Positions 933 through 34,178 of a stretch of DNA of 34,889 nucleotides are shown here, one piece after another. Every line of letters starts with the position of its first letter. Position 1 is the stretch's first letter. The notes beneath the pieces were generated by a model that had not been told where the DNA came from, made no database searches, and worked only from the letters and a program-made list of their open reading frames with translations. Position numbers and translations under genes: made by a program. Source of the DNA: Amoebophrya sp. A120 (Eukaryota > Protista > Dinoflagellata); NCBI GenBank assembly GCA_905178155.1, contig CAJINV010000002.1, forward strand, positions 4,428,249 through 4,463,137, read 5' to 3'.

Positions 933-3042
933 CTCGTCAATGATTTTTTCGTCACGCGCGCGTCGGCCCTGGTACAGAGCGGAAGTGGAGGGCGGACGGC
1001 CAGTGAGATAAGGGAAATGGACGAAATGCTGGGCAACATGAACTACAGCACCGAGCAAGACGATGAAGAGGCCTTCATTCAAGCCTATCCAACATGACAG
1101 ATTTTTGGGCTCGACGGAGGGAATTTTTGTTCATATGTTCATGCATGATTCTTAATGTTGATGTGCCACTGCCGGTGGGGGTACTTCTTAGTTCCGGCGA
1201 GACTTTGCAAGCAATAGCAAGCGGAGCAAATAAACCAAAATAAATGGAATTATGCACCCAAAAAATTCATCCTCCGGGGTAAGTAGTTCCTTCAAATCTC
1301 CTTCTCCATAAATCCCAAATGGCGTTGTTCCAAGAAATGGACCTCATGGAGCAGAAAACCCGAGAAACCGATACGACCTGCTCAAACGGTACAATCTCAA
1401 ACGTTACAATAGAGTATGGAAATCTGTGATGCAAACGGTGCATGACCTAGCCTCCTCCCACAGCATTGCGCATGACAAGTTCTGGAGTCCCAAACCGCAG
1501 TAGAATCTGGCGAAATTTGTATTGCAGTGTGGGTCTGTCATGAGCATGCTCATCATGCAATACAAAATCCAGATTCTTTTGTAACGCTTGAGATTGTGAC
1601 GCTTCTTGAGCGGGTCATAACCGATGTGAAGCTCGATGATGTCCCGAAGCAGGTCACGCTGCCACACCCCGGAACCTCCGGAACCATGACGGGCGACGAA
1701 AGTTCGGACCCGACGGTTCGGAGCTTTTTCTATGCACTGCAAAGGTATCGTACTAGTATGAATCGCATGACAAATGTCCTTAGAATGAGAAATGAAATTT
1801 GTAATGCGGATTCAGCATAGCAAATGAATTTGCAATGCATGACTGCGATTAATGTTACCAGTGAGATGCTTTTGCAATGCATATTCTATCCCCGAAGACA
1901 AGTCCGAATGACCGGACGGAGTCGCGGGAATCAAGATCTATGAGAGTGCACAACTCCCTCCCCTGATTTGTGTAGCTGCATCCACAGCAATACAAACACC
2001 AGCACGCGTAGTGCTTATGCATGATAAATTTGTGTTCCTAGTGCAGTACTGTTTCGGCTTCGAAATTTGTCATGCAAGCAGTGCCATGAGGCAGCGACTG
2101 GATTCGGGGTTTTGCATTACAAATAAGGGGGAGGTGGACCTGTGCACTGTCATAAGATCGGTCAAAATTGTCGAAGCGGTGATAATATCAAACGCAAAAA
2201 TGCCCGGGTCTGGAAGTAGATTGCGAGATTTGTAATGCTGGTCTGGCATGAGCATGACTCTGAACAACTCTGTGTTGCGTGGCCGGGAAGCGCTCCTCTT
2301 GGCTGTAATGCAAAAACACAGCTTCTCATGCGGAGTACGCAACTTAGAATTACGGAAAAACTTGTCATGCTTTGTAGCGCATTACAGTGTAGTGCTGAAT
2401 ATTCCTTGTCTTGCATCACAAGTTTCCAGACCCAGACACATTTGCAGTTCATAGATAAGCAGCAGTCCAAAGTCCAACATCGCAAACAGTACTGGCGTAT
2501 CCTGTGCAAAAGTATCGTACTCGTATTGGAATCATGCATTACAAATCTTTTTGTTATGTCAAATCTGCATTACAAATTTCATTTCCCATGCTGAGGAAAT
2601 TTGTAATGCGTTTATACGAGTGCGATACTTTTGCAGTGCATACGGCGGGACCATGCTGCAGGAATACCAGGCGAGATTAGCAGAAAGCCGGAAATCGAAT
2701 TTCAAAACAACAGCCGGCAGTAGCGGCGGCAGTAGAACGAACGCAACTCTGCAGAACATAACTTATCCGGAGGGCGAGAGCAAAAACACGGTGGATTTGG
2801 ATAAGGTGATAGAATCTAGTGCGGAGCAAGGCGAGGATTTTAGCAGCGAGATGTTGACAAGTACAGCACTACCAGCAGCGCCAAAGAAATCCCGGGGAAA
2901 GTTGGAAGTGCGGGTGAGCTCGTCACAGGCCGCGGGGGCTGATCGCGCAGGAGGCAGTAGAGCCGCGCCCAGGAATAGTCTCTACACGGCCACGGATCAC
3001 TTCTCGACCCTGCGACACAGTACTATCATCTACCGTTTTTGA
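933..3042 (+). CDS. Hypothetical protein, at least 7 exons, 5' end uncertain
   Basis: Removing six introners (+5 nt each) gives a continuous frame: ..MDEMLGNMNYSTEQDDEEAFIQA|QMALFQEMDLMEQKTRETDTTCSNG|LERVITDVKLDD..TVRSFF|SPKTSPNDRTESRESR|SVKIVEAVI|SSSPKSNIANSTG|GTMLQEYQARLAES..stop 3042. Possible acceptor AG at 931-932. No recognisable domain. Confidence 0.7.
1086..1310. mobile_element. Introner, degenerate TIR
   Basis: TATCC...CCATA, flanks AAGCC/AATCC; removal restores frame. Confidence 0.7.
1390..1598. mobile_element. Introner
   Basis: TIR TACAATCTCAAACGTTACAA / TTGTAACGCTTGAGATTGTG; diverged flanks AACGG/ACGCT; element+5 restores frame. Confidence 0.75.
1731..1883. mobile_element. Introner family A
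   Basis: TIR TATGCACTGCAAAGGTATC / GATGCTTTTGCAATGCATA; flanks TTTTC/TTCTA. Confidence 0.85.
1939..2154. mobile_element. Introner family B
   Basis: TIR TATGAGAGTGCACA / TGTGCACTGTCATA; TSD AGATC. Confidence 0.9.
2186..2453. mobile_element. Introner family C
   Basis: TATCAAACGCAAAAATGCCCGGGTCTGGAA / TTCCAGACCCAGACACATTTGCAGTTCATA; TSD GATAA. Confidence 0.9.
2498..2642. mobile_element. Introner family A
   Basis: TATCCTGTGCAAAAGTATCGTACTCGTAT / ATACGAGTGCGATACTTTTGCAGTGCATA; TSD TGGCG/CGGCG. Confidence 0.9.
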
Positions 3043-3970
3043 TAAAAGTGTTTTTTTTCTGTAAGAAGGTTAGTTTTGGTCGTTCTCATCTCTACAACTA
3101 CGCATGCAGTGAGTGAGTGCCTCGTCTACCTGTTAATATTACCAGCAGCGCAGTAGAAGTGGCAGTACTAAAGAAGATGCAACACAAGATGGGTTTTTTC
3201 AAAAATATCAACAGATTTCATGCAGTATGGATCGTCGCCTTCCCGCATCCGCGAGGTCATCTTCGAAACAAACGAATCAATATCGGATGTGCTTTACGGC
3301 AGTTGAAAAATCTAAAACTCAGGTCGGCCATGGTCCACCGATTTTGCAAAGGCATCTACCATGCAAGAAAGAACATGACTTGGAAGGGGAAATTTCCATG
3401 TTCTTGGAGCGTCTGTTTTCTGTATCCTAAAGTTTTTCTGAGTGACAGCGCTCTGGTGTCGCAACTCATGGCCGCTTGATTTAGATTTTATCCCTGATTT
3501 CCCGAAGCTGTGGAGCGATTCTGTCCCGCTGTTCATCCCCGACGCCACTTCCATCCTCGAGTCCGTCGAAATGGCGTGCGACAGCTCGGTCTTTGTCGGC
3601 GATTTTTTTGCCGCGGTTTTATTGAAACACTACCTGGAAATTTCGAATTTGCCCCTGGGGATGACGCAGAGGGACGCGAAAGCCATGGCTATTCGGAAGT
3701 AAAGATGTTGGATGAAGTAGTGGATTTCGTTTGCAACTTTGAAATTTCACCGTCAAGAACATGCCGCGCTGTTGTTCCAAGCGCAAGTGCTACTTAATCG
3801 CTGACGATTCATCTTCAGCATCACATGCAACCTACAGGTACCTGCACTTCAACTTCCAGAACCTGTTCAAACCGGAAATCGCCGGTGGTCCGAGAGGGCG
3901 GCAACAGCAGTCGCAGATCAGACCTTCCGGGGGCGACTACTGAGTCCTCGGGTTTTCGGTGGTCTATTAA

Positions 3971-4395
3971 GAATAAGGTAACAAGGAATCTAGACGTGAC
4001 CGGGGGGGTCACGCCCGTCCGGCCGGCCGGACGGACGGCACGTGACCGGGGGTCGGTCGTGGCGCTAGGAGGTGGTGGCCGCGGTGGACCGCGCGCCCGG
4101 GCAACTAAAAAAAAAAAAAGGTCATGAGCTCGGTCCTTCACTGAAGAACTGCCTCTCTTCGTCACGCTCCGCCCCCGGTCACGCGGCCGGGGGCTGTTAG
4201 CTAGCTCGGGCGCCCAACTAAAAAATCCGCCGTCGGTGACGCGGCCGGGGGCTTCTAGCTACCGAGGGCCAAAGTTGCTGCGGCATTCAGCGCCGAACTC
4301 GCCCCGAGGCCGGACTACCCCCGGTCACGTGCCGTCCGGCCGGACGGACGGACGTGACCCCCCCGGTCACGTCGAGTTTCCCTGTTACTATATTC
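3971..4395. mobile_element. GC-rich MITE-like element with ~80-bp terminal inverted repeats
   Basis: Left GTAACAAGGAATCTAGACGTGACCGGGGGGGTCACG..GGCACGTGACCGGGGG pairs with right CCCCCGGTCACGTGCC..GTGACCCCCCGGTCACGTCGAGTTTCCCTGTTAC. Internal GTGACC/GGTCAC motifs. No convincing ORF. Confidence 0.8.
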
Positions 4396-5132: not shown

Positions 5133-5893
5133 ATGCGGTCCGTCTTTCTCTCCCTCGTAGCGTCCTCCGCTACGACATCTTCTGCGCTTTTGATGAAGGA
5201 GAAAGCCCAAACGTCCGCCGCTTTCACTTTGAAGGAACAGGAGGCCGCGAAGCAGGGGTTCGGGTTACCGGGATGTGATTTAGACACCTATGTCCGCTAC
5301 AAGGTCACGTTTTGCTCCGGGACGAAGGGAGAGGGCGGAATCAAGCCGTTGAAGAACCCGTACTTTAAGAAGCTGGAAGCGGACGTCAGCGAGTATAAGA
5401 AGGAGGGAAACCGCGAGCTGGGCTGGAAGAAGTGGATGGGGGTAAAGCTAAAGCAGCTACTTTACTACGTGTTTTTGATGTGCATATAATGCTGGTGCAG
5501 TCGGGTATGCATGACAAAACGACATTTTCATGCGTGATCGTGCATTACAAAATCAAAAAGCGAAGTCACACCATGAAAAAATCCAGGACACCATCGTCGA
5601 AAACTCCTTCTCCGTCTGCCACAACGAAATCGGTGCTTTATCCTGTGCAAAAGCATCGTAGTCGTAGTAATTCTTGGAATCATGCATTACAAATCTCTTT
5701 CCTAAGGTGAATCCGCACTACAAACTTCATTTGTCATGCTGAGGAAATTTGTAATGCATTTATACGAGTGCGATAGTACTTTTGCCCTGCATACGCTTTC
5801 GCAAACGGCGACTCCTGCACCTACGAATTTAAAAACGAGGCGGGGCAGGTCATGCCGACGGACGCTGTCAGCTTATTCGGGGTTTCTGTGTAA
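5133..5893 (+). CDS. Small putative secreted protein, 3 exons
   Basis: Signal-peptide-like start MRSVFLSLVASSATTSSALL. GT-AG intron 5442-5586 and introner 5639-5793 give ..KKWMG|DTIVENSFSVCHNEIGA|FANGDSCTYEFKNEAGQVMPTDAVSLFGVSV*. Confidence 0.8.
5639..5793. mobile_element. Introner family A
   Basis: TATCCTGTGCAAAAGCATCG / CTTTTGCCCTGCATA; TSD TGCTT/CGCTT. Confidence 0.9.
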
Positions 5894-6081
5894 GCGGTTG
5901 AGTGGCAGAGCCAGAGACTACATCAGTTTGATGTGATTCTTCAGAAAACTATAAGCTGTTTCGGGTCAGTCGCTATGTAAGATTTTTGGTTTCGGGTTAA
6001 CAAGGTTTGAAGTTTTAGAAATCGAAATGCAAAAAAAAATGGATCTGCGAAAAATTATGATGCGCTACGAAGATGAGAAAG

Positions 6082-6697: not shown

Positions 6698-9600
6698 ATG
6701 CGGAGGGCGCGTCCGGGCGCCGTGTCGCTCGTAGCGGCCTTTACTGCTCTCACCGATGCGGCCAAATCCCCGGAAACCAACGGCATCGCCAAGGTGCTAG
6801 AAATGCTTGCTGGCATGAAGGAGAAGGCGATCAAGGAACTGCAGGATGAGAAAGTAACCTTCGCCAAATTTTCCCAGTGGTGCGACGACACGAAGATAGA
6901 ATTGGACTCGGCGATAAAGAAGGGCGGTACCATGATCGACGATTATGCATTGCAAAAGGAATATTGCACTAAGTCTAGTAGGAGGTCTCGTGGCAAGATT
7001 TCTAAAGAGGAAAAAATGCAGTTTGTGATGCTGTTTCACCTAAGGTGGGAGATATGTCATGCGCGATTGCAACTAATACGAGAACGAGTGCCGCGATACT
7101 TTTGCACAGAATAACAAATACACCGGGGCAATCGCGATGAACGAAGGAAAGAGCACGGAGCTCGCAAGCGAAATCGAGGAACTCGCTGGTAAAAGAATTA
7201 TACTCTTTCAAAGTTACATGCTTCTTTAAATTTGCATGTAGTGGCGATTTCGATGAAGTTAGAATTTGAGTTTTAGACTCATACATAATGACGATGTGTA
7301 GATGTGGACGCAATGCAAAATTTTTGCTTTTGGCCCTTCAGATACAATATAACACATTTAAAAAATACCAGCTTCCTCCGCCGCTCTGACCGAAAAGAAA
7401 AACGCGGAAGTCGCCCGTCGAGCGGAAGAAGCCTCTGCCAGCGCGAAGATAAAGGCGGAAATCCAGGAAAACATCATCGCGGTGGGCAAGGCGATTGAAG
7501 TTTTGAAGGCCGAACCAAAGTCCGTCGCGTTTACGCAAACGAAAAAGGAGGCTTTGATGCAAATGGAGCAATCTACCGCCATGTCCAGTAGGCAGAAGGA
7601 GATCGTGTCGCTGTTGGTCACAGGTACTTTTGTTTTTCGCGAAGATGAAGTCAAAAGTTTTTAATTATTTTGAATTTTGCAGCATCACATCGAGGGATAA
7701 TTGTCATTAGCTTTGCTTTGTATGGTAAGTTTTTAACTTGTTCAATGGCGCAAAGGGATTTGAACAGCGACATTTTCCTACATGATGTACTTCTAAATCA
7801 AAATTATCCAGGTGTCCCTGCGTACGAGAACCAGTCCGGCGGTGTTATCAAGATGCTCGAGGACTTGATGGACCAGTTCGTCGCGGAGAAATTTAAAGAA
7901 GAGAAGGAAGACAGCATCAAAGCCGCCGCTTCCGACAAGATCGTGACGAATTTAAACGTATCAAATGCAAATACGTCTGGGTCATCTGGAGGAGCAAAAG
8001 GTTTGTCATGCAGCTTTCGCATGAGCCAGAAAGTCTGGAATGCGGGCCGTAGCATCACAAGTTAAAGTTTTGAGAAGGTTTCCCTAACTGTTGAATCCAT
8101 ACGAGAACTCCGCATGAGAATGGCAATCAAAAGAGAGGACTTCTTCTTTTCCTGGTCACGCAATACAGATTTCTGCGTCGATCAGATTTAGCATGACAAA
8201 CTCGAACTCTTCCACACCCAGACATGTTTGCATTTGATAAAACGGCCAGATCCGCTTGGTTGAAGAAGACAAGACCCGCTCTGAGGGCGCCAAGGCAAAG
8301 CACGACGCCGCCGCGGGAAAGGCGAGCGAGGACAAAGCGGACGCTATCCTGAGTAGAAACACCCCTACACCATAGTCAAGTTGATAAATCTGCAACACAA
8401 AAAAACTCAAAGTCATGGGAGTATATGCATGACAGGTTCCTGTCTGCAGCGTAGTGCTGGTTAGCGAGGACAGCCGCATCACAAAGATGGCCCCTTATGC
8501 TGTTTACAGCACCACAAATCCCAGAACACGACTACAATCGCCACGCATGATGCGGATGCGCATTACAAATGATTCTGTGGATGCAAATCTGCAAGACAAC
8601 TAGGGGGTGGGGATGTTTTTACTCAGGATAGACGCGGAAGAGACGCTCGCGAAGAATGTGAAAAACGAAAAGCAGATGTCCGCGACGTGTGCGAAGAAGC
8701 ACGCCGACATGGACGTCAGGACCCAAATATGAAGTGCAAAAGTATCGTACTCGTATAAGTGCATGACAAATTCCCTCAGCGTGAGAATTAAGATTTGTAA
8801 TGCGTATTTACTTTGAGGAAAAACTTGTAACTATGCAAGACTTGCATTTATACGAATGCGATACTTTTGCACAGGATACCAGACCAGAACGGCGGAGATC
8901 GAAGCGATTGGCAAGGCGGCGGAGACTATGATACACAAAAGTTCGTCACAAGGACAATAATCACTCATGTTGCGCATTTTTGCAATACAAACACAAACGT
9001 GTCTATCATGTGCAATAAAAATTCACCTTCACCACATTGTTCGAGTTTCGTACGCGAGTTGCCGTGTGTTTGTTCGCCAAAAGATGAAAAAGCTGTGTTG
9101 GTAGAAAAAATTATCATTCAAAATCTGCACCAAAGCAGTAACTGCGGCGAACTTTTTTCCCTTCCATAGAGACAATCGAAGGCGTTGCCGGGTTGAAGAC
9201 CGCTGCGGGTTTGGTGCAGCAGGCGACCACCTCGTTCCTGCAGCTGTCCGCCAACAAAGTGTTCTCCAAACAGCACTCTTCCGACGTCGACGTCGCGTCT
9301 CTGCTCCGCACCGCGGGCCAGAAGCAACACAGCAAGCGGCTGCAGCTCCTCGCTTTGAAGATCGAGTCCCTTTCGTCCGTCGGCGGGCCGTTTGATAAGA
9401 TCAAAAAGATGATCGAAGACATGATCATGAAGCTAAAGAAAGAATCCGCGGAGGAAGCCGGGAAGAACGCCCAGTGCGTCCAGTTATGCAGTGAAAAAGT
9501 AGGGTAGAAGTGGTACTGGTGGAACTGTTGTCGCATGACAGATCTCCTTTCAGCTAACTTGAATGTGCGTGACAAGTTAAAGTTTTCGTTTTTCTTCCTA

Positions 9601-11979
9601 AAAATGTTGAAATTTGTATTGCAATTCCCACTAGGACTAGTACCACAATGCAGGTCTTTTTTGAATCCATAAGACTGGATGAGCGACAACAAGCAAGACA
9701 TGGAAGATTCCCAGGAGCGGCTCGACGCACTGAAGATCGAGATCGAGAAGCAAACCTCCACCGTTGAGTCTTCCACTGCGAAGTTAGCGGAGCTCGCCGA
9801 CGAGGCTGCGAAGGCGCAATCCACCCTCGCAAAGGCGTATCACGAGAAAAAAGTGTTACAGTTACCCAGGTGTTGGAGTTTCTGCATCACAGATTTTCTC
9901 TTGGTGGCAGAGAAAACGTGTAATGCGAAGATCATAAGCGAAAGCAGGAACAAAACGAGGCTCCCAAGCATTTCCTGCATGAGAAAGGTTGTCTGTGTTG
10001 CCGGTCTTGCATAGACTATGTGTGTAACTGTAACGCTTTTTTCTTGCGATAAGGCGGGCAAGACGCGGGCGGAGGAAAAAAAGGAAAACGCAGCGACGGT
10101 TGCGGACGCCAAGGTCGGGAGCGAGGCCGTGGACAAGGCCATTCAGGTATAATTGACGGAATTTTCATCTGTTTTCAGCATGACAGAACAGGTTTCCTTC
10201 GCTATTTGCGCATTAGGAACAGGTGTAGGTGGACTTTTGAACCTTTATCAATCTCGATTGCCAAATCGTGATCGCTGCTTCACAAAGAAAAATAATGTTG
10301 TTTGGTGTCCTGCAAGAGAAAGTGAAATTTAGTACTAGTCCCTGAATTTAAATTGCAATGATAAAAAACTATCAGATCCTGAACGATTTCTATGGTGACG
10401 CTGCGACGAAGACCTCCCTGGTTCAAGTGAAGCAGTATCCTGTGCAAAAGTATCGTACTAGTATGAATCGCAATACAAATTAGCTCAGCATTACAAACTT
10501 CACTTTGTAATGCTGATTCACCTTTATTTTTGTATTGCATAACTGCAATTAGTACGAGTGCGATACTTTTGCACTGCATAAGCAGCCAGAAGTGGACATG
10601 TCCGACATGCCCGACACCTTCGATTCCCCCTACACGGGCCAACAGTCCATGGGCGGTGGCGTCGTCGGTATCATGGAAGTGATTCTCTCGGACTTTTTAT
10701 TCTGTTTAAAAACGTCCCCACCCGGCCCAGAGTTCTTGTCATCGACAAATCTGCATGACAAGAAGTAGTCTCTCGTGCGAGGGAGACCGATGAGAGACAT
10801 TTTCTAGTCGTGGTTTGGAATAATTTGTGATGCTAGAAACAGCACGATGTGCTAGATTTGCGATGCTCCTGAACTAGCTTTAAACGCAATTACATATATG
10901 AGGACAAACTTGTCATGCGAAACAAACTAAAGCTGGTGGATTTGTCTAGCAGATTTCCCATCTTGGCTCTGATATGGGGACGTTTTTATGCAGGATACCT
11001 TCTGAAGCTCCTCCAAGAAACCGAAGCTGCGGAGTCCGCCGCACAGAAGGAGTACGACGAGTTGGTCCAAAATGAAGCCGAGGCCAAAGCCGCCCGGGAC
11101 GCGCAAATGTCTCACTATGCAATGCAAATATGTCATCTGGTTCCTCTGAAAGAACGCTGCAACTTGTCAAGTTTCTCATGCGGGAAAGGCATGATGGAGA
11201 TCTTACGGAATCTAGCATGCTAGGTCCTGCATCTTCCCACCCCTCATGATGTGTCAAGGCCATGGAAAACCTGCTTGACAAGCCTTCGGCTCATCATCTG
11301 GCAGATGACCCAGACATATTTGCAATGCATACCCACTTGGAGAAGACCAAAGCGAAAGCAAAGGCGGACTTGACCCAGGCTATGGGAGATTTGGAAACGG
11401 AAAAGTCCACCATGTCGTCGATCGTCGAGGCCAAGCGCGTGATCGAACAGGATAAGGGGTGTGTCATGGGCGCGGGGAATATCCACAGTAAATTTCCTGT
11501 ACACGTACAAATGCGGTCCCTGCATGACAAAACTTGGCTTCGATCCTAGTTTAGCATGACAAGTTTTATGCTCCAAATTGGCGAAATTTGTGATGCATCT
11601 TGTACATGTACGGGAAACTTGTATTGCATAGGCAAGACACCGGATGAGCTGTTCAAGGAAAGGTCGGACGCGAGAAAGGCGGAGATGGAGTCTTTTATGG
11701 CGTTCTCAGCTGTTACATCCTCAGCTGTTACATGGATTTGTGATGCAAGAACTGCAACAGTGAACAAATAGGGGACCGACCTTGCGCTTCTCGCATGACA
11801 GATTTGGCAAAGATTCTCAGCCTGTTGGGCTCGTCGGGAATTTGTCATGCGAAGTAGCTTCATCGTGCCGATTCTGATTGCAATTTTGCATGACACATCA
11901 TGTAACAGTTAAGAATGTAACATTTGAGAACGCCATATCTTTAGGGCAGGCGTTGGAGGTGTTGAAGGTGCAAACGTAG
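6698..11979 (+). CDS. Dinoflagellate-type secreted coiled-coil protein with duplicated halves (possibly trichocyst-matrix-like); 16 exons
   Basis: Signal peptide. Motifs IAKVLEML..FSQWC, YENQSGGVIKMLEDL, SFLQ, GPFDKIKKMIEDMIMKL..EA, PYTGQQSMGGGVVGIMEVILSDF and RKAEMESLGQALEVL*, which I recognise from an abundant dinoflagellate family. 12 introners plus GT-AG introns 7189-7371, 7624-7811 and 10147-10375; frame continuous to TAG 11977-11979. Function is inference. Confidence 0.85.
6944..7113. mobile_element. Introner family A
   Basis: TATGCATTGCAAAAG / CTTTTGCACAGAATA; flanks ACGAT/ACAAA. Confidence 0.85.
7959..8239. mobile_element. Introner family C
   Basis: TATCAAATGCAAATACGTCTGGG / CCCAGACATGTTTGCATTTGATA; TSD AAACG. 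Confidence 0.92.
8345..8630. mobile_element. Introner family D
   Basis: TATCCTGAGTAGAAACACCCC / GGGGATGTTTTTACTCAGGATA; TSD GACGC. Confidence 0.92.
8728..8878. mobile_element. Introner family A
   Basis: TATGAAGTGCAAAAGTATCG / CGATACTTTTGCACAGGATA; TSD CCAAA/CCAGA. Confidence 0.9.
8927..9168. mobile_element. Introner, degenerate TIR
   Basis: TATG...CATA; perfect TSD GAGAC; removal restores frame. Confidence 0.8.
9485..9671. mobile_element. Introner, degenerate
   Basis: TATGCAGTGAAAAAG / CTTTTTTGAATCCATA; flanks CCAGT/AGACT; element+5 gives ..QCVQ|WMSDNK. Confidence 0.8.
9838..10051. mobile_element. Introner family F
   Basis: TATCACGAGAAAAAAGTGTTACAGTTAC / GTAACTGTAACGCTTTTTTCTTGCGATA; TSD AGGCG. 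Confidence 0.92.
10436..10580. mobile_element. Introner family A
   Basis: TATCCTGTGCAAAAGTATCG / CGATACTTTTGCACTGCATA; TSD AGCAG. Confidence 0.92.
10698..10997. mobile_element. Introner family D
   Basis: TATTCTGTTTAAAAACGTCCCCA / TGGGGACGTTTTTATGCAGGATA; flanks CTTTT/CCTTC. Confidence 0.9.
11116..11331. mobile_element. Introner family C-related
   Basis: TATGCAATGCAAATATGTC / GACATATTTGCAATGCATA; TSD CTCAC/CCCAC. Confidence 0.9.
11480..11630. mobile_element. Introner
   Basis: TATCCACAGTAAATTTCCTGTACACGTACAA / TTGTACATGTACGGGAAACTTGTATTGCATA; TSD GGGAA/GGCAA. Confidence 0.88.
11696..11937. mobile_element. Introner
   Basis: TATGGCGTTCTCAGCTGTTACAT / ATGTAACATTTGAGAACGCCATA; TSD TCTTT. Confidence 0.92.
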
Positions 11980-16229: not shown

Positions 16230-16449
16230 CAGTTGTGGCGCGAACAGGAGAGAGGTTAAAGTTGCGTCTTTAGGTCTGTGAGACGTGATGATGATTGTGA
16301 TTCTTTGCTTCTTCCTGCTTGGACGAAGTGGGACACGTGGCCGCACAACCAGGAGGGTCTGCTTCTTTCATTGAATGTGATGGATGTGCAATAACCATCG
16401 TCTCCACATCAACTTCAACCAACTTCATAGTTTCACGTTTAAAAAAACC

Positions 16450-19429: not shown

Positions 19430-19809
19430 TTTCTCGGTTTTTTTTGGCTCAATACACGACGTTTCACACAAGCAACCTGTTCCTGTGCATGAAAAATGAC
19501 AAACACAAGAACTACTTTTCTGAAACTGAAACAATGTCTTGTTTGCGTCACGTAGATGAAAATGTAGCTCTAAGAGCTAGGTGCTGCATGTTGATCAACA
19601 TCACATCATGATAAAACAGACGTTCGTTTTCGCGCGCAAACGCATGTTGCGGCGGGTGTATGCTGTGCAAAAGCGTTGCTTGATATTTTTTTTTAAATGT
19701 GCGACGTGCCATGGTAGTGGTTAAAAAGATTCGTGTCGCAATATGAAGCTTTTATTTGTCCCCTCGTAAAAATACTAGTATCTACTATTTTGTATAGCTG
19801 CATGACATC

Positions 19810-22308
19810 ATGGGCAGAAAGTCAGAGTCAGACACTTTTGCACCGCATACCGGACAGGATGAAATCAAGCCAGCGGAAGTCAAAGAAGCAGCGGGTGCAG
19901 CCACTATGAGAGCGCACAACTCCCCCTCCACGTCATAATTTGGAAGGGGGCATGAACAGCTTTCCTTCGTCAGCAAGAGTGCAGGTTTGGCATGACAAAT
20001 TTATTTATTGCGCAGGATTGTAGTGCTGTTTGGGCCTAGTGCCAGCACTTTTTGTAATGCAAACATTTCCTCTTAGAGGCGAGGCGTGAATATCAGTTTC
20101 GTTTTGCATGACAAATGAGGGGTTTTGATATGGTGCAGTCTGGTACGCATGACAAATGAGGGATGGTGGAGGAGGAGTTGTGCACTCTGATAGCTACGGA
20201 GAGCAGCGGTGCAGCAGCTGTCCAGCAGGAACCAACGGTGGTGGACATCGAGGGGTCCGGGACCGTTTCGAGTGATCGTAGGGGATCGGAAATTAGAAGA
20301 ACGCAGCATTGATGTTGTATTTCTCTTCAACTTGCATGCAGCAACGTCAAGACGAACGTATATTTGTTGAAAATGAAGAAAATGAAGAACTCGAACCCAA
20401 ACCTCCGCACGCCCCCCTAGTGCAGGATAAATGATGATGATGATGAACATGAACTTGTCATGCAACACCTACAGCTGCGTCTCTCTGCGCCAGTGGTCGC
20501 AGCCCCACCAATTCAGTCACAGTATACAACATTTTTATAAGTTTGAGCAGCTGTGGCTTAGGAAATGTTGAAGATTGTGAACAATGCCACTTCGTTCCTC
20601 TAGCATAAGCAGCGGTGCCAGCACCTGGGAAACGATTTCGAACTCGATTTACTCGGCGTTTCTGGGAACGAGCGGTATTGAGCTGTTCTTTTCACACGGT
20701 GCGTACACGTAGGACCTCGTCCGCATGACATTCTAGTGCGCTTCTACCCTATGATGTCGTTCCTTCTGGAATTTCGTGTTCTCTAAAATAATCAAACTGA
20801 AGGTGATCCTGCACAAAAAATCCCAGCAGATGTGATTGCTGACGGACAGAAACAAGAGGTGGGAGCAAAGCCGTCTTCGGCCATCGAAATGCAAACCGCG
20901 GGAGGAAAGCAAAGTGGAGACCAGAAAATGGAACGTAGTGGGAGTGATACAAGGACAACAGTTGTAGGATTGGAAGGCAGCACGGGGACTGCAACGGGTA
21001 TCAAATTGTTGACATTATTGAAATTCATTCCTCCAGACGCAAACTTGTGCGTGCTTATCTCAGGAGCTTCTGTATCTGTTTATGTGTGATTGCGAAATGT
21101 AGACTCTGACGCCAACGTTTGTTGCGAGACCGAATTAGAATTTGCAACTCGAGTATGAATGAACTCTGTTGTGAGACGGAATTTCATATTATAAAATTTA
21201 CGGAACTTGTTTGATTGAAACATCAGATACTCTTCCTTCATCAGCTGTTCCGTCGGCCTCTACAAATGATGTCGTCGCCGAAACTGCTATGGAAAAGCAA
21301 GATGCAAAAGCTGCACCTGCGTCGGTTATCGAAGTGAAGCCACCAGCTGCGGCTTCGACTGGTCAGGAAAGTGGGTTGGCGAAGAGCGGTACTGAACTGT
21401 TGAAGTTGATGTTTCTGTAACCATGCGTGTGATTTACCTGTGTTGGCACCTTGATACTTCTTACAAATTGCTATTGTATTTGCACGGATTCACTTGATGC
21501 GCGTGTCTTCACCACTTTCACAGAAACGCCGACGAGTGTCGCCTCGGATTCTGCAGACATCGCGTCAGCGAATGTTGAGCAGCAGCTGGATGAGCAGCGC
21601 AAACTATCATCGGCAACCGAAACAAAAACAGATGAATCGGGTTTCTCCACATCCTCTGCTGTGGAAAAACACACGACAGAAGCACAACTCGAGAAGCAGA
21701 ACGGCCCTAAAGCAGCAGGAGAAAGCGAGAAGAGCCAGATTGTAGCTGGAGGTCCCTCATCTGTCGTGTCTACTGCCGCAAGAACCGCTGCTGCGGAGCC
21801 GGCGAAGGTAGAGCAGGTTGAGCATGATCATGAACGACAAAGCAACGCGCAAACGAAGTTGCTGTCGTCCTCTACAAGCGGCGTTTCTTCTTCTGGTGCA
21901 GCTCCTTCGTCAGCTACCATGTCGATTTCGGGTTCTCCCGAATCGCAGGTGAAAACCCAAGAAACGAAAGCGGGGCATGCGCAGTCTTTGGAAATTGCCG
22001 GAAGCAGCCCGACTGACAGTGATGAACTGGATTCAACTACAACCAGACGAGCGGGTATTAAGGCGAAACAAGAACAATCCGGAAGCGGCACCGGAGATGA
22101 ACATGAAGGCGATGAATTAAAGGACTCAGTAGAGATGAAGGACGAAAATGCGCCAGCCGATGGCCGAACTGCGGGTGAAGTGGTGCTGGAGATGAAGAAA
22201 GGCAACAAAATAGTAGGAGACAGATGCAGCCAAGGTAGCGAATGTCTTTCGGGGAAGTGTAGCACATTTAAAGGAAAAAAGCAGTGCCGACCATCTAGTG
22301 GGGGTTGA
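19810..22308 (+). CDS. S/T/A/E-rich low-complexity protein with Cys-rich C-terminus; 5' structure uncertain
   Basis: Exons 20830-20997, 21227-21388 and 21524-22308 join through phase-1 GT-AG introns and end GDRCSQGSECLSGKCSTFKGKKQCRPSSGG*. A similar upstream module (19810-~20271, split by an introner) is probably part of the same gene. Confidence 0.6.
19905..20192. mobile_element. Introner family B
   Basis: TATGAGAGCGCACAACTCC / GGAGTTGTGCACTCTGATA; TSD GCCAC/GCTAC. Confidence 0.9.
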
Positions 22309-23175: not shown

Positions 23176-24230
23176 ATGAATCCTTCATCCCCCGTCTCCC
23201 TCCAACGCCTCCTCGGGGAGGCCGTCGGCTGCTACGGGTGCGGCACGAAAAACCCCCACGGCTTCCAACTTCACAGCTACATCAAGCGGCTTTCGCATGA
23301 CAAATCTCCAGCGAAAAAAACCGCCGTCGCGGTGGAAAGTCTCTGGTACCCGAAAGAGTACCACTGCGGCCCTCCGGGGTTTCTGTACGGGGGGTTAAGC
23401 GCTTCTTTACTGGACTGCCTGGCGAACTGGGCGGCGGCGGTGCATCGAGGGGTGGAGGAACTGGGGGCACCAGGAGGCATACCTGAATCAGCTTCAGCTG
23501 GCCTTTCGTGGATTGCTGATGCAGATCATCGCTCGAATCGCCACGACGGCGACCTTCCCTCCTTCCTCACCGACCCAGAATTCCACCTCTCCACCGTCCG
23601 CGCACTGCAGGAAAAGAGCAGACACCTGCCGCTTCCGGTCACGGGATCGTTGCAACTGAAGTATCTGAAACCAGTGCCGATAAGAGTTATCGCGGACACC
23701 AGTACCACCGCCGGCGCCCATTCGGATGGAGCACCACCAGCACCTGGAGAAACGACTGAAGGCGGTGGCGGTGTTACAGTATGCTTTCCAAAAGTATCGT
23801 ACCGGTACGTAGTATAAATCAAAACTATACAACAAAGAACTGCCTCAGCATTACTTGTAATGCGGATTAACCTATAACAACAGGATTTGTAGTCGTAGTG
23901 CATAACTGCGATTACTAACTACGAGCGCGATACTTTTGCACAGGATATACAGCACCAACAACAAACGGCGTCTACCTCCACGCTCACGTAGAGAAAGCCG
24001 AGGGGCGGAAGTATTTCGTTTCGGGTGGGATTTTTGTCGAAAAACCGGAACAACCAATTGTCGTTTTAGATAACGCTGATCGTTCGTACAAGGATGCAGC
24101 GGTGACGTGTACCGCCGTGCTGATTTTTCCGAAACAGAAACTGGCTGATACAACCACTCCTAGCACTGGCAAGCAAGAAGTAGTTGAGCCCCAGATGAGA
24201 AATAGCGCAGAAATTCCCTCGCGGTTGTGA
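23176..24230 (+). CDS. PaaI-like hotdog-fold acyl-CoA thioesterase, 293 aa, C-terminal PTS1 (-SRL)
   Basis: CYGCGxxNPHG, HCGPPGFLYGGLSASLLDC, VTGSLQLKYLKPVP. After the introner: VYLHAHVEKAEGRKYFV..EIPSRL*. Exons of 604+278 nt are in frame. Confidence 0.88.
23780..23947. mobile_element. Introner family A
   Basis: TATGCTTTCCAAAAGTATCG / CGATACTTTTGCACAGGATA; TSD TACAG. Confidence 0.92.
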
Positions 24231-24342: not shown

Positions 24343-26537
24343 ATGAGTGATGCTAGATCCATATCTCCAGCACCAGCACCGGGCGTTGCTTCACCTCCGT
24401 GTGAAGTTTTGATCTTTGACTGCGTTCTTCCCACCCGCTGCGCCCCAACTGTGGTGTCATTTGAGAATGAGATCAAGGTGAAAAACAAAGGTCTATGTCG
24501 CGGTTGTTCAGCAAACTGACTAGGTTGCACATGACAAACACAAATATCCACGTAAAATAATGTCCCTCGTCCTCTCGCCCGAGGATCAAAATAGCGGTTT
24601 CTTTTCGTCCCCCTCGCCAGGAGGTGGAGGCCACAATGCGACGGCATCGTCCCCAGACCACGCAGGCGGATTCGGCATGACAACTAGCGGAGTTATTCCT
24701 GCTCCCGATGGTCATCTCGCGCAAGGACAAGGCGGAACCAGCTACACCGAGGAGCAGCTTGCGGCGCAACAGTACATATGCATTGCAAATATGTCTGGGT
24801 CTGGAAACTTGCGATGCAAGGAAGGGAATAGCGAGCTCGCTGTAATTATACACTGCCAACCATGACAAGTTTTTTCCTGGTTCTAAATTGCGTACTCCGC
24901 ATGAGACGCTGCGTTTCCGCATGACAAGCGAGAGGAGCTCCATGCAGCCACGCAACACAGAGTCCAGTGTCATTCCAGACTAGCATGACAAGCCTCGCAA
25001 TCTCCCAGATCCAGACATATTTGCATTTGATAGTACATCGAGGAACACGACCTGGAAGAGCTCCTGGCCGGTTTAGTGAATCACATTCTAGCGCTTCGGC
25101 CCGGTAGTTCTTCGGCAACTAGAAGTACTTCTTTGAAAAACACGGTGGACACAGAACCGCAGGCCCTGCAGGCCGCTGCGCAGAATGTGCATGAGCATGA
25201 CAAATTCACCCCCGCCATCGCCGGCATTCTGTACTTGGCGCAGCGGGTGGACAGTCACGAGTTGCTGAAGAAACACGGAATATCCAGGAGTGCAAAAGTA
25301 TCGTATTCGTTTTCGTACTAGTTGCAGCAATCACGCATGACATTTCTTCCTTGTTTACCCAAAACTGCATCACAAATTCTTGCATTTTCATCTTTTGAGA
25401 AGATTTGTCATGCACCTGAAGCTGTTACTAGTACGATCGGTGGATCTTCCTTTTGCAATGCATACGGAATCACGATTGACAATGAGTTGGTGAACGCATT
25501 CCGCTTGCCGAGGGAGGCGGAGAGGGAGAGAGAAGCGAAGGCGAGGGAAAGAGGTATGGAATCCGGATCATGTTTCCTGCATGACAATTGGCAAAAGTAA
25601 TCTTCTTTCAGCATGACAGATTGCACCTCATCAAACTAACCAATAGCAATATCGAAAAAACACCTCCGCCCAGCCCTCACCGAACCGTTCGCGGATACCG
25701 TGTATCAAACGAAAAAGTGTTAACCTTAACTGTTTTTACAGTTGACAGCCATGCATTACAAATTTTGCCTGCCATGCATGCTACGCAATACAAATTTGCG
25801 CACTTTTTCTGATGCATCACTGCATCACAAATTCCGGTAACTTGGTTAACATTTTTTCTTGTGACACCGTGTGGGAAAAGCTCATCGCCCCGGCTCTGCG
25901 AGCAGGACAGTCTCTGCAAGCGGTTTTTGAGGAGAGCAATGGTGTCATTGGGGAATCTACAACGAGCAGCGACATGCTGTTGAACTTGAACACTGGTGGA
26001 AATAATATTAAAACGTCAACCTCTGGAGCCGCGACAATGATTGGTGCTGGAGCGAACAATATTTTGAAATCCACGAAGTTTTTCACCTGGCTGACCGAAG
26101 CGTTGCTGGATTTCACGAAAGGTGGTGCGACTAGTGTGGTTCTTCATCCGGACGGCGATGAAGGTGCTGGCCAACAACAAAAGTTGTCGTCAGGCAAGAA
26201 ACACAGTGACCACTACCAGCTAGAGCAGCTGCCCCAGGTAACACTCGATGAAGTCGCCGTCTACAGGATTAGCCTACTTGCGGAGAAAGAGCCGGACGTG
26301 GTTTTTGATTGCAAAGACGAAGAGGAGAAGACTTTTTTGGACTTCTTGCTGGATTACGACCCAACATCCTCTACCGATAAAAACACTGCAACAAAAAATA
26401 ATTCCAAGGAGAAACAAAACACCAATTTGGTACTGGCCGCTGCAAAAGCGGCTGCGAATTGGATTAAAAACAACAATTCCTCGGTGCTGGCGAATAGAAC
26501 GAAGAAGCCGGTCGGAGGGACGAGTAAGGAAAAGTGA
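24343..26537 (+). CDS. Hypothetical protein with RIIa/Dpy-30-like dimerisation-docking motif; start at 24343 or 24560
   Basis: Spliced AAQQY|IEEHDLEELLAGLVNHILALRP..GILYLAQR resembles a D/D domain. Three introners plus GT-AG intron 25554-25673 give a continuous frame to TGA 26537. Confidence 0.7.
24777..25032. mobile_element. Introner family C
   Basis: TATGCATTGCAAATATGTCTGGGTCTGG / CCAGATCCAGACATATTTGCATTTGATA; TSD GTACA. Confidence 0.92.
25281..25464. mobile_element. Introner family A
   Basis: TATCCAGGAGTGCAAAAG / CTTTTGCAATGCATA; TSD CGGAA. Confidence 0.9.
25703..25866. mobile_element. Introner family F
   Basis: TATCAAACGAAAAAGTGTTAACC / GGTTAACATTTTTTCTTGTGACA; TSD CCGTG. Confidence 0.88.
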
Positions 26538-27700: not shown

Positions 27701-28974
27701 ATGTCGGAGTTACAGGGGAACATGGATCAACCTGGCATGAACACGCTGGATGAGCCGGTGATAGACACGATAAAAAGAGATGTAAACGCCATTGCCGAAA
27801 AGCTGCACTACGTGCTGTTACCGAAGGCACGGGTGGACAAGGTACAAGTTGCTTTTTTGTCTGATACGATCGTGATGTGATAATTGTGCATCACAGAGCA
27901 GATGGCGTGGTGTAGTATTAGCCACCCCGGCACATATGATTTCAATATTTCCCGCACGACCTCTTGTCAGGGCGCCGGCCTCCGAAAGTGGGATCTCTGG
28001 GGTCCCTTGTTTCTCTGCCTCGCCCTCTCCTATCAACTGTAAAAAAAGTGTCTGGGTCTGGAAGAATCCTACTTTTCATGCTGATTTTGGATTCTAAAAA
28101 AATAAAAATCTGTATTGCGTGAGCAGCAAAGAGAGTCCAAGTTTTGCTACACGGAAAGAGCATTTGTCATGCGGTATGGGCATCAGGAAGTCCTCACAAA
28201 ATCTGCGATGCTAGGGCATGCATCACAGACGTCAGGAGTCATGCAAAATGTGCATGACAAACCTGGCAATCTTCCAGACCCAGACACTTTTACATTTGAT
28301 ATCTCCACCGTCCTAGCCATGCAGGCACACAAGGAGCAGGCTGGGAGAGCCTTCGCCCTCGTGTTTATACTCGTGTGGTATAGAAGTACAAAAATGTTGT
28401 TGATACAATTTGTTCGCAAAGGCTTCTTGACAGATGTGTCGTATAATCGGATCTCATGTTACGCATGACAAGGCTGTTTGTTTTGTTGCATTAAAACAGA
28501 AGAAAAATCAGGGCCGGCTCCGGTGTCGTCACACTGAACACAGTGTTACTGAAGGGAAAAATCTCCTTTTTCCAGAGCGTGTGTGTCCTCGGGTACTGCA
28601 TCTTTCCGCTCGTCCTCGCAGCGGTCGCCTCGGCAATAGTATCGTGGAAGATACTGAAGGTAATGTTGTCGCTCAAGAGCATTTTCATGGAAATGGAATG
28701 CTATTCCTGCATGACAGATCCCGTCGCGGGATTATGTAAATGCATGACAAGTTCTTGTACAGTGAAAATCATGATTAGCATATGTATCGAATAAACTTTG
28801 TACCAAAAAAAACCACCCGCTCAGGTTATCTTCGTCGTCATTGGCTTCATATGGGCAACCGGCGCCTCTGTTGGGTTTATGAGCGACATTGTGCCAGAGG
28901 ACCGGAAAGCGCTAGGAGTGTACCCGGTATGGCTCTTCTACGTGGCAATAGCCTGGATGATTCTGCTCGCATAG
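27701..28974 (+). CDS. YIPF6: Yip1-domain Golgi membrane protein (YIPF6/Yip4-like), 5 exons
   Basis: NTLDEPVIDTIKRD..KLHYVLLP, LRKWDLWGPLFLCLAL, ISFFQSVCVLGYCIFPL, RKALGVYPVWLFY. GT-AG introns 27842-27970, 28378-28511 and 28660-28824, plus introner 28031-28301. Confidence 0.92.
28031..28301. mobile_element. Introner family C
   Basis: TATCAACTGTAAAAAAAGTGTCTGGGTCTGGAAG / CTTCCAGACCCAGACACTTTTACATTTGATA; TSD TCTCC. Confidence 0.93.
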
Positions 28975-29884: not shown

Positions 29885-32800
29885 ATGCTCGCCGACAGCA
29901 GCTTCGATGACCCCGAGTTTACCACGGTCACTATCAAAGAGCAAATAAAGTGTTAATGCTAACGGAATAAAAATTTGTGATGCAGGAACGCATGCATCAC
30001 AAAAGGGGCCCACATTTTTCTTGCATTTGTATTGCATAGCATGCATTCTAAGCAAAATTTGTCATGCTTTTCTGCAATCTGTGTAAACCCGTAAGTACTA
30101 AACGTTAGCACGTCATTTTTGTTTGATAGTCACCCTCAGTGGTCAGCGGTACCGAAAAGTTCTTCTCCCCGACCATGTATCCTGAGGAAAAACGTCCCCA
30201 CCCCATACTTGTCATGCAGCTTTGCAGTTACAGGAAGATTTGTAATGCGCAACCCCATGAGAGCCATTTCCAATCGTGTTTTGGACTTTGTGATGCTGTA
30301 AACAGGATGAGTAGATGGACTTGTGTTGTGGCTGTTGTACTTGCTATAAACTGCACTACACTACAGAGAGGAATTTGTCATGCTTGATTCTCAAAGCTTC
30401 TCGATTTGTGTTGCGAGATCCCCATCTTGACTATGGGGTGGGGACGTTTTTACGCAGGATACCATGTTCTGGATCTCCACCCCGTGAAGCTCGGGCGGGG
30501 CGGGAAACACGTATCAAATGCAAAAATGTCTGGGTCTGGAAGATTGGAACTTGTGATGCTAACTTTGGACTCTAAAAAGATCTGTATTCCATGACCAGCA
30601 AGAGGAGTCTAGTTTGTGCTACGCGGGGAGGGCGTTTGTCATGCGGAGTAGGCATCAGGAAGCCCTCTAAAAATCTGCGATGCTAGGGCGTGCATTACAG
30701 ACGTCCTGGGTCAACATGCAAAACATGCATGACAAGTTTCAGAATCTTCCAGACCCAGACATTTTTGCATTTGATAACACGGGGAAGAAGACGACGAGGA
30801 GCGTGGGCATTATTACACCGATGAAGACAGCGACTACGAGAACGACAGCAACGTCTTCAACGATAGCGAGGATGAGGGTCGGTGGGAGTTTTTGGAGGTT
30901 GAGGACAAGTACGAGTATCGGCTCCCCGTGCCGCAAGTCTACTTCAAATTCCTCATCGGGGCGAATCACAAGACCTTGAAGAAAATGGAGCAAGACACGG
31001 GGTGCGAGATCCTGTGCAAGGAGGGACAGGCGCCTGTTGGGAAAATGACAAACGCGAAAACGGGGGACGAAATCGACGGGCACGTGGCCATTCGGGCCAG
31101 GGACAAAATGTCGCTGAAAGCGGGGAAAGGGGCCGTTGAGTACTTACTCTTCTCTGTGCATTGAAAAGCCTTAACCTACGTTCTTTACGCAATGCATTTG
31201 TAAAATGCAGCTATGCTTACAATGCTTGTTATGCTAGTCCTTCTGATGCCAAGTAGAGTGCTGTAACAGATAGAAGCGTGCTTCGTGTGTGTTGTGTTTT
31301 TCCATGAAAATCATCTCTAAAAACAATACTAGGTACACAATGGAGCTGGCAGAACAAAAAATCCCGATGACGCACTTTTTCAACGTGAGGATACCCGCAA
31401 ATTCCATCGTGCCCACCAAATTCCAGCAGTGGTTGGACACAAAGCAGTGCGTGGAGTTGAATCCCCACTACTTCCAGAAGCCCGAGCGGTTACACTTCAC
31501 GCTGTTGCCGTTGAAGCTTCACACGAAGGAGAAATATGAGAGTGCACAACTACTGCCCCTCCCCCTCATTTGTATAGCATGAACGGCAATACAAGCGTCA
31601 GCAAGAGTGCTGGCTTCGCGTGATAGATTTGCCCAGCAGGGGTGTAGTAATGTTTGGTACCACTCCGGAGTTTGTCATGCAAACAGTGCCAACAGGCACA
31701 GCCTGGATTTGGTATTTTGCATGACATCAAATGAGGGGGAGCAGGGGGGGTTGTGCACTGTCATAAGAAAATCGAGAAAGTGAAACAGATTATCCGGGAA
31801 CTGAACGCCAGTGACTGGTTTCCGGACGCGGTTATGACAGCCTCAGAATGGAAATCCTCAAAGTGGAAATGATTTGTAATGCAAAAAAACGACTCCAGTT
31901 GAAGCGCCATTTCTAATCGGCGCATGACAAATTTCCCGGGCACTCAAAACATGTGTGTCATGCTAGTTAGGGCAAAGGTGTGCTGCCCTTCTCTCGTGCT
32001 AATCAGCAGCCCACTTCCTCGGAACCCGTAGAAGCACAATAGTCGGCCTCCATTGCGTCCGCTGCAATACAGTCTTTTTGGTGTCGCATTTTATGCATCA
32101 CAAATTATTTCCACTTTGAGAATTTCCATTCTGAGGCTTTCATAGCGGTGGAGCGGTTTCGGTTAGATTTATCAAAGAAAAAAACATTGTAGGTGTAACT
32201 TTTTTGGAGGAACAGCATTACAAATCTGTCTGGCATGACAGCAAAAACCTGTCATGCGCAGACAGTATGTGAAAACGCCCTTTACTGGACCCTACAAGGC
32301 ATGCCAAGCATGACAGACGCGATCATCTTGCATGTTGCGCATCACAAATTTACACTAACAACGTTTTTTTCTTGGATAAGATTTGAAAGGTCTTCATTAC
32401 ATGAACGACGAACCAGGGAAGGTGAATGTGTTTATCCTGTGCAAAAGTATCGTACTCGTACAAATGCTAATGCAAGTCTTGCGTTACAGATCTTGTTTCC
32501 AAGGCAAATCTGCATTACAAATTTTATTTCTCATGCTGAGGAAATTTGTAATGCATTTATACGAGTACGATACTTTTGCAGTTCATAGTGTTGTACACAG
32601 AACCAAGCACAGGAGCTGGAGGAGCTTCATCTGCTTCTGCAACGACAAGCAGTTCTGCATCAAGCTCTCATTCTCAACGACCGCCCAACCCTTTAAACCA
32701 CCTCGTGGACATCCTGTTTCAAATTCTGATCAAAAACGACATTGTCACGAAAGAGTACCTGATGCAGCAACGGTTATTGGATTCAACCGGCAAGAACGCG

Positions 32801-33220
32801 GATATAAAACCGCACTGCACGCTTTTGAACACGAAATTCTACGTGCAGTACATGGAGAGAACGGGAAAATGGTCCAGCGCCAAGGCGTTCGAGGAGGAAA
32901 ACGAAAACCCAAGGTTTATCAACGCGAAACCGCTGCTGCAAGCCAACGTGGGGTACGATTTTGGGTCTTTTGAAGCAGTTATCCTTTGCAAACGTATCGC
33001 ATTCGTAGTTGTAATCGCAGTCATGCATTACAAATTTCGTTTCCAAGGCAAATCAGCATGACAAATTTTATTTGTAATGCTGAGCGAATTTGTATTGCAA
33101 TAACTACTACGTACGATACTTTTGCAATTCATAGTGGTAGAGGTGGAGTTTTCCGATATGCTGGAGATTGACAGGAACACCCAGTACTTCAAAAAGCTCG
33201 CTGGGCTGAAACTAGGATAA
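29885..33220 (+). CDS. ASCC1: Activating signal cointegrator 1 complex subunit 1-like (KH domain + 2H-phosphoesterase/AKAP7-like domain), 10 exons
   Basis: N-terminal TLSGQRYRK; KH domain VPQVYFKFLIGANHKTLKKMEQDTGCEI; PMTHFFNV; two HxT motifs (RLHFTL, KPHCTL); KGLHYMNDEPGKVNVLY; YDFG. Eight introners plus GT-AG intron 31140-31332; TAA at 33218-33220. Confidence 0.9.
29932..30128. mobile_element. Introner, family F-like
   Basis: TATCAAA...TTTGATA; TSD GTCAC. Confidence 0.88.
30178..30461. mobile_element. Introner family D
   Basis: TATCCTGAGGAAAAACGTCCCCACCCCATA / TATGGGGTGGGGACGTTTTTACGCAGGATA; TSD CCATG. Confidence 0.93.
30512..30776. mobile_element. Introner family C (young; absent from the paralogous copy)
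   Basis: Perfect TIR of over 30 bp, TATCAAATGCAAAAATGTCTGGGTCTGGAAGATT; TSD ACACG. Confidence 0.95.
31535..31765. mobile_element. Introner family B
   Basis: TATGAGAGTGCACAAC / GTTGTGCACTGTCATA; TSD AGAAA. Confidence 0.93.
31833..32144. mobile_element. Introner family E
   Basis: TATGACAGCCTCAGAATGGAAATCCTCAAAGTGGAAAT / ATTTCCACTTTGAGAATTTCCATTCTGAGGCTTTCATA; TSD GCGGT. Confidence 0.93.
32170..32378. mobile_element. Introner family F
   Basis: TATCAAAGAAAAAAACATTGT / ACAACGTTTTTTTCTTGGATA; TSD AGATT. Confidence 0.9.
32433..32587. mobile_element. Introner family A
   Basis: TATCCTGTGCAAAAGTATCGTACTCGTA / TACGAGTACGATACTTTTGCAGTTCATA; TSD GTGTT. Confidence 0.93.
32980..33133. mobile_element. 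Introner family A
   Basis: TATCCTTTGCAAACGTATCG / CGATACTTTTGCAATTCATA; flanks GCAGT/GTGGT. Confidence 0.9.
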
Positions 33221-34170: not shown

Positions 34171-34178
34171 AAACATCA

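Follow-up and report, generated by a model that had tools for sequence, protein, structure and literature searches.

A short internal motif on a 16-bp lattice is shared by the introner families of Amoebophrya sp. A120 and is a candidate binding site for a common mobiliser

Introners of the dinoflagellate Amoebophrya sp. A120 have been described as elements with inverted repeats, made of TAT, seven variable bases and at least three A residues, with 3–5-nt direct repeats and non-canonical junctions (Farhat et al., 2021; PMC7789003). According to the text of that paper, such elements make up ∼68% of the non-canonical introns of A120, and 15% of its canonical introns carry similar repeats. Here I report on a 34,889-nt stretch of this genome (contig CAJINV010000002.1, positions 4,428,249 to 4,463,137 of the forward strand; hereafter the window), whose introners share a short internal motif, GCATNACAR, set on a 16-bp lattice. 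Organism and elements are those of the published study, the text of which (as distinct from its figures, including S14, S19 and S25) describes termini and direct repeats and no shared internal motif or lattice. The introners are thus already published, and I found no earlier report of the internal motif or the lattice: both are absent from the text searched, including that of PMC7789003, PMC12130899, PMC11282704 and PMC12005148, whose figures lay outside the search and could show them. The motif bears both on how A120 introners move and on how they are spliced.

Two described groups of elements come close to those of the window. A120 introner family 38 (Gozashti et al., 2025; PMC12130899) is classed, in the sections covered here, as TIR (terminal inverted repeat) DNA/Ginger, and is ∼808 bp long with open reading frame (ORF) fragments like those of long terminal repeat (LTR) elements. 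Compared by description rather than by sequence, it resembles the window elements in its 5-bp target-site duplication (TSD) and TA/TA termini; those sections do not treat internal sites. IS3EU and GingerRoot (PMC10045372, PMC6839031) also share the TA..TA termini, and are described, in the excerpts used, as having an integrase-like DDE transposase, no target sequence preference and autonomous copies. Their TSD, however, is usually 6 bp, against 5 bp in the window elements, the TIRs of GingerRoot measure 100–150 bp, and neither is described there as an intron. Because the duplication is 5 bp and not 6, I do not file the introners as members of this group.

Subterminal repeats that bind the transposase are known from several transposons, CACTA/En-Spm among them. 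In the parts of PMC6188088 covered here, the IS1535 TnpA protein is described as nucleating on four 9-bp motifs that are helically phased and lie 20–60 bp from the end, and hAT elements as having subterminal repeats at variable spacing. The introner motif resembles these: they too are short repeated sites, set 20–60 bp or further in from the ends, which the known transposons require for end pairing and which in IS1535 are helically phased. It differs from them in being common to 14 families with different bodies, in filling the whole short element, and in alternating strand at each 16-bp step; IS1535, moreover, has direct repeats, a serine enzyme, and neither TIR nor TSD (PMC6188088). Subterminal binding repeats are therefore a known kind of signal, and what would be new is the sharing of one motif and its lattice in introners.

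In order to compare elements in number, I used the window together with 622,471 bp of merged loci from a sister lineage, a sample of loci and not a whole genome, on which all element counts, trees and densities below draw. At least 141 loci came from one sister assembly (JACKZZ01 contigs), as matches to one family-specific pattern in 19 of its 64 parts; since they were picked for carrying one family, family F0 is over-represented. Two loci, L004 and L005, represent the window orthologue in the sister (∼76–98% identity), and each side has private element insertions. In total 497 elements were called; removal of one false call (28801–29290) before clustering left 496, of which 464 grouped into 14 families of at least three members. 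The insertion strand could be called from flanking codon use for 383 of the 496, and the 113 without a confident call were excluded from strand tests. These calls are consistent along loci, correct for all window elements, and match all 8 called frames bearing a Pfam domain (10 of 114 frames had a Pfam match). All modelled genes of the window lie on the + strand, so that "sense" and "+" are inseparable there.

The elements start with TAT (rarely TAC), have a run of A at positions 11–14 and a mirror-image terminus, and are flanked by a 5-bp duplication. Positions 11–14 are A in 79–91% of ends (from a logo, a TA[TC] start being the search criterion), and the duplication is exact in 373 of the 497 calls, for which at least 3 of 5 matching bases were required; empty sites in the sister confirm the 5 bp. 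When each element is excised with 5 nt, a 678-amino acid frame opens across 12 elements and 3 GT-AG introns. In the KH/AKAP7-domain gene (29885–33220, + strand; protein P0001), excision of 8 elements, each with 5 nt, and one GT-AG intron yields 431/431 identity with the deposited protein record, and one window exon matches this Amoebophrya sp. A120 protein at 100%. Introners within these coordinates belong to families F11 (29932..30128), F3 in reverse orientation (30178..30461), F1 (30512..30776, with a perfect 34-bp inverted repeat), F4 (31535..31765), F5 (31833..32144), F2 (32170..32378) and F0 (32433..32587 and 32980..33133); here and below, introner coordinates carry no strand. In kind, the elements are miniature transposons of TAT..ATA type, non-autonomous, bounded by inverted repeats and duplicating 5 bp of target, and in their inverted repeats, short direct repeat and restored frame they fit the description of A120 introners in the text of PMC7789003. 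Three long elements in the sister (L008:505-1608, L030:6184-6998 and L043:821-1792; 815–1,104 bp) have perfect duplications and family-type ends around unrelated cargo, and in these the motif sites crowd near the ends. The cargo of L008 recurs at L053/L054, and no meaningful Pfam match was found in the cargo of the long elements.

GCATNACAR has 104 exact matches in the window, against 3.20 ± 1.85 expected from 100 dinucleotide shuffles (largest value 9). A preliminary description of this DNA, made from its letters alone, had reported the motif as recurrent, and every coordinate it listed is indeed a match. Within the window, 87 of the 104 matches fall in 37 elements (8,178 bp), 45 on the + and 42 on the − strand, and 34 of the 37 elements contain at least one. 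Only five lie outside elements and GT-AG introns, four of them in reading frames (15111, 23295, 24675, 25195) and one at 20455; those at 15111 and 23295 are duplicate sequence. In the sister, exact matches per kb amount to 11.4 in elements, 8.8 in degenerate elements, 0.42 in called introns, 0.16 in unannotated or intergenic DNA and 0.03 in exons, which bears out the reported scarcity in exons and intergenic DNA. A weight matrix extends the motif to GCA(T/A)(G/T/C)ACA(A/G)(A/G)T. Among 1,270 sites the variable position N is G in 575, T in 385, C in 297 and A in 13, and A is thus nearly excluded. Viral contigs searched with two patterns gave no match, genome contigs searched with a three-site pattern gave 5 bacterial matches, inside a rough chance estimate of tens, and an Rfam search of the window found nothing. 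The motif also resembles an Oct-Sox composite site, which I put down to chance; at best the likeness would hint at a binder of HMG type.

All 14 family consensuses carry the motif, with 2–8 sites each. Unmasked, 57 of the 91 pairs of consensuses align, against only 2 once motif sites and termini are masked, so the claim that the motif joins unrelated families holds for most bodies; it does not hold throughout, F2/F10, F4/F8 and F6/F8 being distant kin.

The spacing of the sites, which the preliminary description did not mention, follows a simple rule. Of neighbouring sites no more than 55 bp apart, 50 of 58 have a spacing that deviates from a multiple of 16 by 2 bp at most, against a fraction that averages 38% and never exceeds 63% in 5,000 random placements; the count is 31 of 35 when each kin group has one representative. 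Strand alternates at each step: pairs 14–18 bp apart are on opposite strands in 16 cases and on the same strand in 3, pairs 30–34 bp apart on the same strand in 22 and on opposite strands in 5, and pairs 45–52 bp apart on opposite strands in 14 and on the same in 3 (p = 4e-7, the pairs being non-independent). If orientation is taken into account, the best period is 10.5 bp (score 0.58, against 0.32 at 11 bp). The pitch of B-DNA is 10.5 bp, and the orientation-dependent spacing fits phasing along such a helix. Under either this period or the orientation-blind one given below, the lattice suggests proteins arrayed along a duplex. The presence of one motif in every family, together with so strict a spacing rule, argues for one trans-acting factor.

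I next turned to the conservation of the five core bases on trees of the 10 largest families. On internal branches the core shows 0.27 changes per column against 1.43 for the background, an approximately five-fold difference, and on terminal branches 1.33 against 2.96 (p = 1e-10); core changes do not differ by strand (sense 119/3570, antisense 121/3978). Relative to the nearest relative, the ratio of core to background change falls from 0.87 in the 11 closest copies to 0.44 at 5–10% divergence and 0.24–0.30 beyond 10%, and the core is kept better than the terminal 14 bp. Copies beside exons (291, ratio 0.28) and away from predicted exons (179, ratio 0.32) are similar. In 10 insertions common to window and sister, the core has changed at 7 of 135 positions and the background at 127 of 1618 (p = 0.31; 13/174 against 119/1549 with a looser cut-off), and had the constraint of the internal branches persisted, 2.0 core changes would be expected instead of 7 (p = 0.005). 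Constraint on the motif is thus strong in lineages that make copies and weaker or undetectable in fixed copies, the latter being a small sample. A site on which mobility depends should show just this pattern, and the motif shares with subterminal repeats that its short repeated sites near the ends are kept in transposing lineages. Four-fold synonymous sites (72/459) were dropped as a neutral yardstick because they vary independently of neighbouring introns; between window 6698-11979 and L005, their divergence is 15–18% throughout, with introns of the 3′ half at just 4–6%.

The motif also occurs in GT-AG introns, all on the + strand in the window. Two sense copies each are found in 5442..5586 (5509 and 5542, 33 bp apart; the sister has one intact and one degenerate copy, with the spacing broken), in the predicted intron 25554..25673 (25579 and 25611, 32 bp apart) and in 28660..28824 (28709 and 28742, 33 bp apart), which has a duplicate at 34193-34356. 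One sense copy each is found in 10147..10375 (exact, at 10178), 28378..28511 (28463) and 27842..27970 (27888), the last in a gene that I presume to be Yip1-like; 31140..31332 has a single antisense copy, an N = A variant at 31226, and 7189..7371 and 7624..7811 have none in the window. This makes 12 matches in 10 introns (1,650 bp), 11 sense and 1 antisense; as one intron is a duplicate, the independent count is 9:1. The reported sense bias is therefore present in the window, and is not borne out in the sister, where the ratio is 3:2 in strictly filtered introns not orthologous to the window (3 of 23 with an exact match) and, in the imprecise set of introns called automatically, 15:15. The strict filter was adopted because, of the 9 window introns that the gene-finder called with high confidence, only 4 agreed with the hand models. 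In the full strict set (27 sister introns, 4 of them orthologous to window introns) there are 9 weight-matrix sites against ∼0.9 expected from shuffles. Outside elements, 9 of 17 same-strand site pairs are 31–34 bp apart and 3 of 6 opposite-strand pairs 16 bp apart, and a 104-nt sister intron without inverted repeats (L018:2225-2328) contains three exact sites at 16-bp steps. Canonical introns have an A-rich tract, not a pyrimidine tract, before (C/T)AG, and window donors read GTA; the sister introns had been selected on these same features.

From these sequence patterns, I consider it fairly likely that the motif represents binding sites on double-stranded DNA, required for copying, for a shared mobiliser (a transposase) or a DNA-bending cofactor, and that its copies in GT-AG introns are relics. 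One mobiliser would read the TAT-N7-AAA tips together with the 16-bp lattice, which may align bound protein along a single helix face, so helping to loop a 110–320-bp element until its ends meet. Given the TA..TA ends and the 5-bp duplication, this mobiliser would probably be integrase-like, or else the binder would be a bending cofactor. Splicing would then rest on other signals, likely the end-to-end RNA hairpin proposed in the text of PMC7789003. The motif pairs in GT-AG introns would likely derive from old elements, which may account for most of the GT-AG data. A transposase-type DNA site was the second option of the preliminary description, and it agrees with the orientation-dependent helical spacing and the constraint pattern. 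For a search for the missing mobiliser, the motif and its phasing rule provide a defined bait and a mutagenesis rule, which make it findable.

Several observations weigh against this explanation. No transposase or integrase appears among the Pfam matches of 114 sister ORFs and 11 cargo ORFs, and no autonomous copy with an integrase-like DDE transposase was found in the 622 kb of sister loci or the three long cargo elements, a sample short of the whole genome. Likewise, according to the text of PMC7789003, no transposase was found in A120 and general mobilisation by transposase was ruled out. An orientation-blind period of 16–16.5 bp scores slightly higher than the helical one (0.66 against 0.58), and in folded single strands 94 of 150 site-orientations are paired with another site. 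Among the shared insertions, a 7-pair subset leans toward conservation (4/100 against 99/1028, p = 0.068), the 95% interval of post-fixation core change (2.1–10.4%) allows substantial constraint, and several motif copies per element could mask selection by the host. Seven of 9 window GT-AG introns have an exact match, with the 9:1 sense lean noted above (p = 0.02 by site, 0.125 by intron), and the L018 triplet is hard to explain by pure decay; richness, lean and triplet are all unaccounted for if these copies are relics.

These GT-AG data leave room for the main rival explanation, in which the lattice, on DNA or on the RNA stems of the elements, is recognised in either orientation by a host protein that marks the intron co-transcriptionally, in place of a U1 that the text of PMC7789003 reports as undetected in A120, introners having spread by carrying this mark. 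The motif enrichment in the 27 sister introns, which lack inverted repeats, the lattice spacing kept by pairs outside elements, and the scarcity in exons all speak for it, as does a core that after fixation is, if anything, slightly better kept than the background (ratio 0.66). Against this, 20 of the 23 strict non-orthologous introns have no exact match, and elements 11116-11331 and 8927-9168 no longer have an exact site, yet the reading frames that they interrupt are intact. Every site is kept in transmitting lineages, which is not required if the sites are redundant for splicing, and copies flanked by exons are constrained no differently from others. I therefore regard a host mark as unlikely, if still tenable. 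The two functions may also be combined: one protein could coat the strand-alternating lattice, both looping the introner for integrase-type copying and flagging the intron for a spliceosome without U1, the mark having spread to GT-AG introns. I hold this dual role to be doubtful as well; if true, it would make a transposon binding site the intron label of the genome.

Recognition of the motif in folded single strands, whether RNA or single-stranded DNA intermediates, with paired copies forming stems for copying or splicing, is improbable. Consensus elements do fold end to end (z of −6 to −20 relative to 15 mononucleotide shuffles that left the ends in place), and the pairing of 94 of 150 site-orientations is what such a role predicts. 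However, forward F3 and F9 keep their sites despite few or no partners, and pairing accounts for mirror positions but leaves the 16/32/48 spacing unexplained. A period of 10.5 gives a better fit than one of 11, and the 5-bp duplication would point to an integrase-type reaction on duplex DNA.

It is quite improbable that motif and spacing have no function today and simply descend from a single ancestor made up of repeats of a short unit. Some families are kin (F2/F10, F4/F6/F8), and short spacers leave little room for indels, as such descent would have it. Yet spacers no longer align between families (2 of 91 pairs), and in copies more than 10% diverged the core changes at 0.24–0.30 of the background rate and less than the terminal 14 bp; the tree and nearest-relative constraint largely refute this explanation.

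The preliminary description had favoured a splicing signal: each element would bear, on both of its strands, a branch site or a site for an RNA splicing factor, and could then be spliced irrespective of its direction of insertion. Branch-point sequences (yUnAy, UACUAAC) pair with U2, and the motif shares with them the letters T-N-A-C and a frequent position 30–55 nt from the 3′ end of the element. The outermost sites face outward in 8 of 14 families, which places a sense copy 31–54 nt from the 3′ end in either orientation, and the 3′ junction most often follows the last sense A by 40–50 nt; inverted-repeat symmetry predicts the same 31–54 nt. The 9:1 ratio of window GT-AG introns points the same way. 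A shorter word, ATGA, is enriched upstream of the acceptor: of 32 GT-AG introns, 17 have it 50–9 nt ahead of the AG, compared with ∼10 elsewhere. This count is post hoc, on introns selected for A-rich acceptors, and the word is a weak lead for the true branch site.

Unlike a branch point, the motif avoids A at N, the opposite of UACUAAC/U2 pairing, is present in several copies per intron, and is missing from most GT-AG introns. It has no strand bias either, with 458 sense and 530 antisense exact matches in the 383 strand-called elements, 36 of which have no sense site even by weight matrix. Insertions of F3, whose strong sites all point one way, divide 13:15, those of F0 57:67 and those of F1 60:38 (p = 0.03, one of 14 tests), and the asymmetric families F2, F3, F9 and F11 have 33 favourable and 43 unfavourable insertions. 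In six symmetric families, 3′-sense sites and their 5′-antisense mirrors change equally (61/1374 and 67/1359, p = 0.59). The would-be branch A changes in 8 of 153 cases, is less stable than G1, C2 and A8, and tolerates G (8%); 57 of 75 predicted folds place it in a base pair. Element 30178-30461, with 0 sense and 4 antisense exact motifs, is nevertheless excised in the deposited protein, and motif distances in sister GT-AG introns spread from 29 to 204 nt. A branch site paired by a variant U2 is thus very unlikely, and the result shifts attention away from the branch-point model.

The other elements of the window differ in their presence in the sister. Missing from the sister are F8 (1372..1619, TAC..ATA, with a 5-bp duplication), F4 (1939..2154), F0 (10436..10580) and F3 in reverse orientation (10698..10997). 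Present in both are F0 (1731..1883, and 6944..7113, which has no sense motif site), F1 (7959..8239, and 11116..11331, mentioned above), two older introners, one F10-like (8927..9168) and one F0-like (9485..9671), F2 (9838..10051), an F0-like introner (11480..11630) and F6 (11696..11937). At 8728..8878 the window has F0, and the sister a different 314-nt element at about the same site. Comparison of this position and of the neighbouring forward F3 (8345..8630; 3 sense and 0 antisense exact matches) with L004 16461-17085 shows differing families at about the same sites in the two lineages, which suggests parallel insertions or replacement. The F5 introner at 17741..18094 has a sister copy with a nested F6 element (L005 ∼15171-15413).

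Further introners are F1 at 2186..2453, 24777..25032 and 28031..28301; F0 at 2498..2642, 5639..5793, 23780..23947 (antisense site only) and 25281..25464 (a profile match); F4 at 15178..15393 (a profile match with degenerate ends); an F4-like element at 19905..20192; and F11 at 25703..25866. A truncated F3 element (15570..15801) lies within a duplicated gene fragment, a truncated F5 element is found at 15960..16236, and a degenerate TAT..ATA element of no family, without exact motif, at 19659..19849.

Outside the introners, a 435-bp, strongly palindromic, GC-rich insertion (3961-4395) is missing from the sister orthologue; it has no motif, no TAT-N7-AAA ends and no clear target duplication, and is a different mobile element. 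Between window 1250-12650 and L005, small non-coding indels favour 3 and 6 bp alike in elements, introns and intergenic DNA, which suggests a mutational bias. Repeated gene-upstream segments or duplicated gene fragments were identified by eye, and partly by BLAST, at 12549-12615, 14418-14640, 15570-15960, 16230-16450, 18342-18550, 22550-22620 and 33380-34410; they include pieces of the KH/AKAP7 gene and of the presumed Yip1-like gene, with one intron. Finally, positions 1-700 contain a degenerate ∼20-bp tandem repeat (GGGTACAAAATT-like) that is part of a longer duplication and is strongly skewed in both GC and AT.

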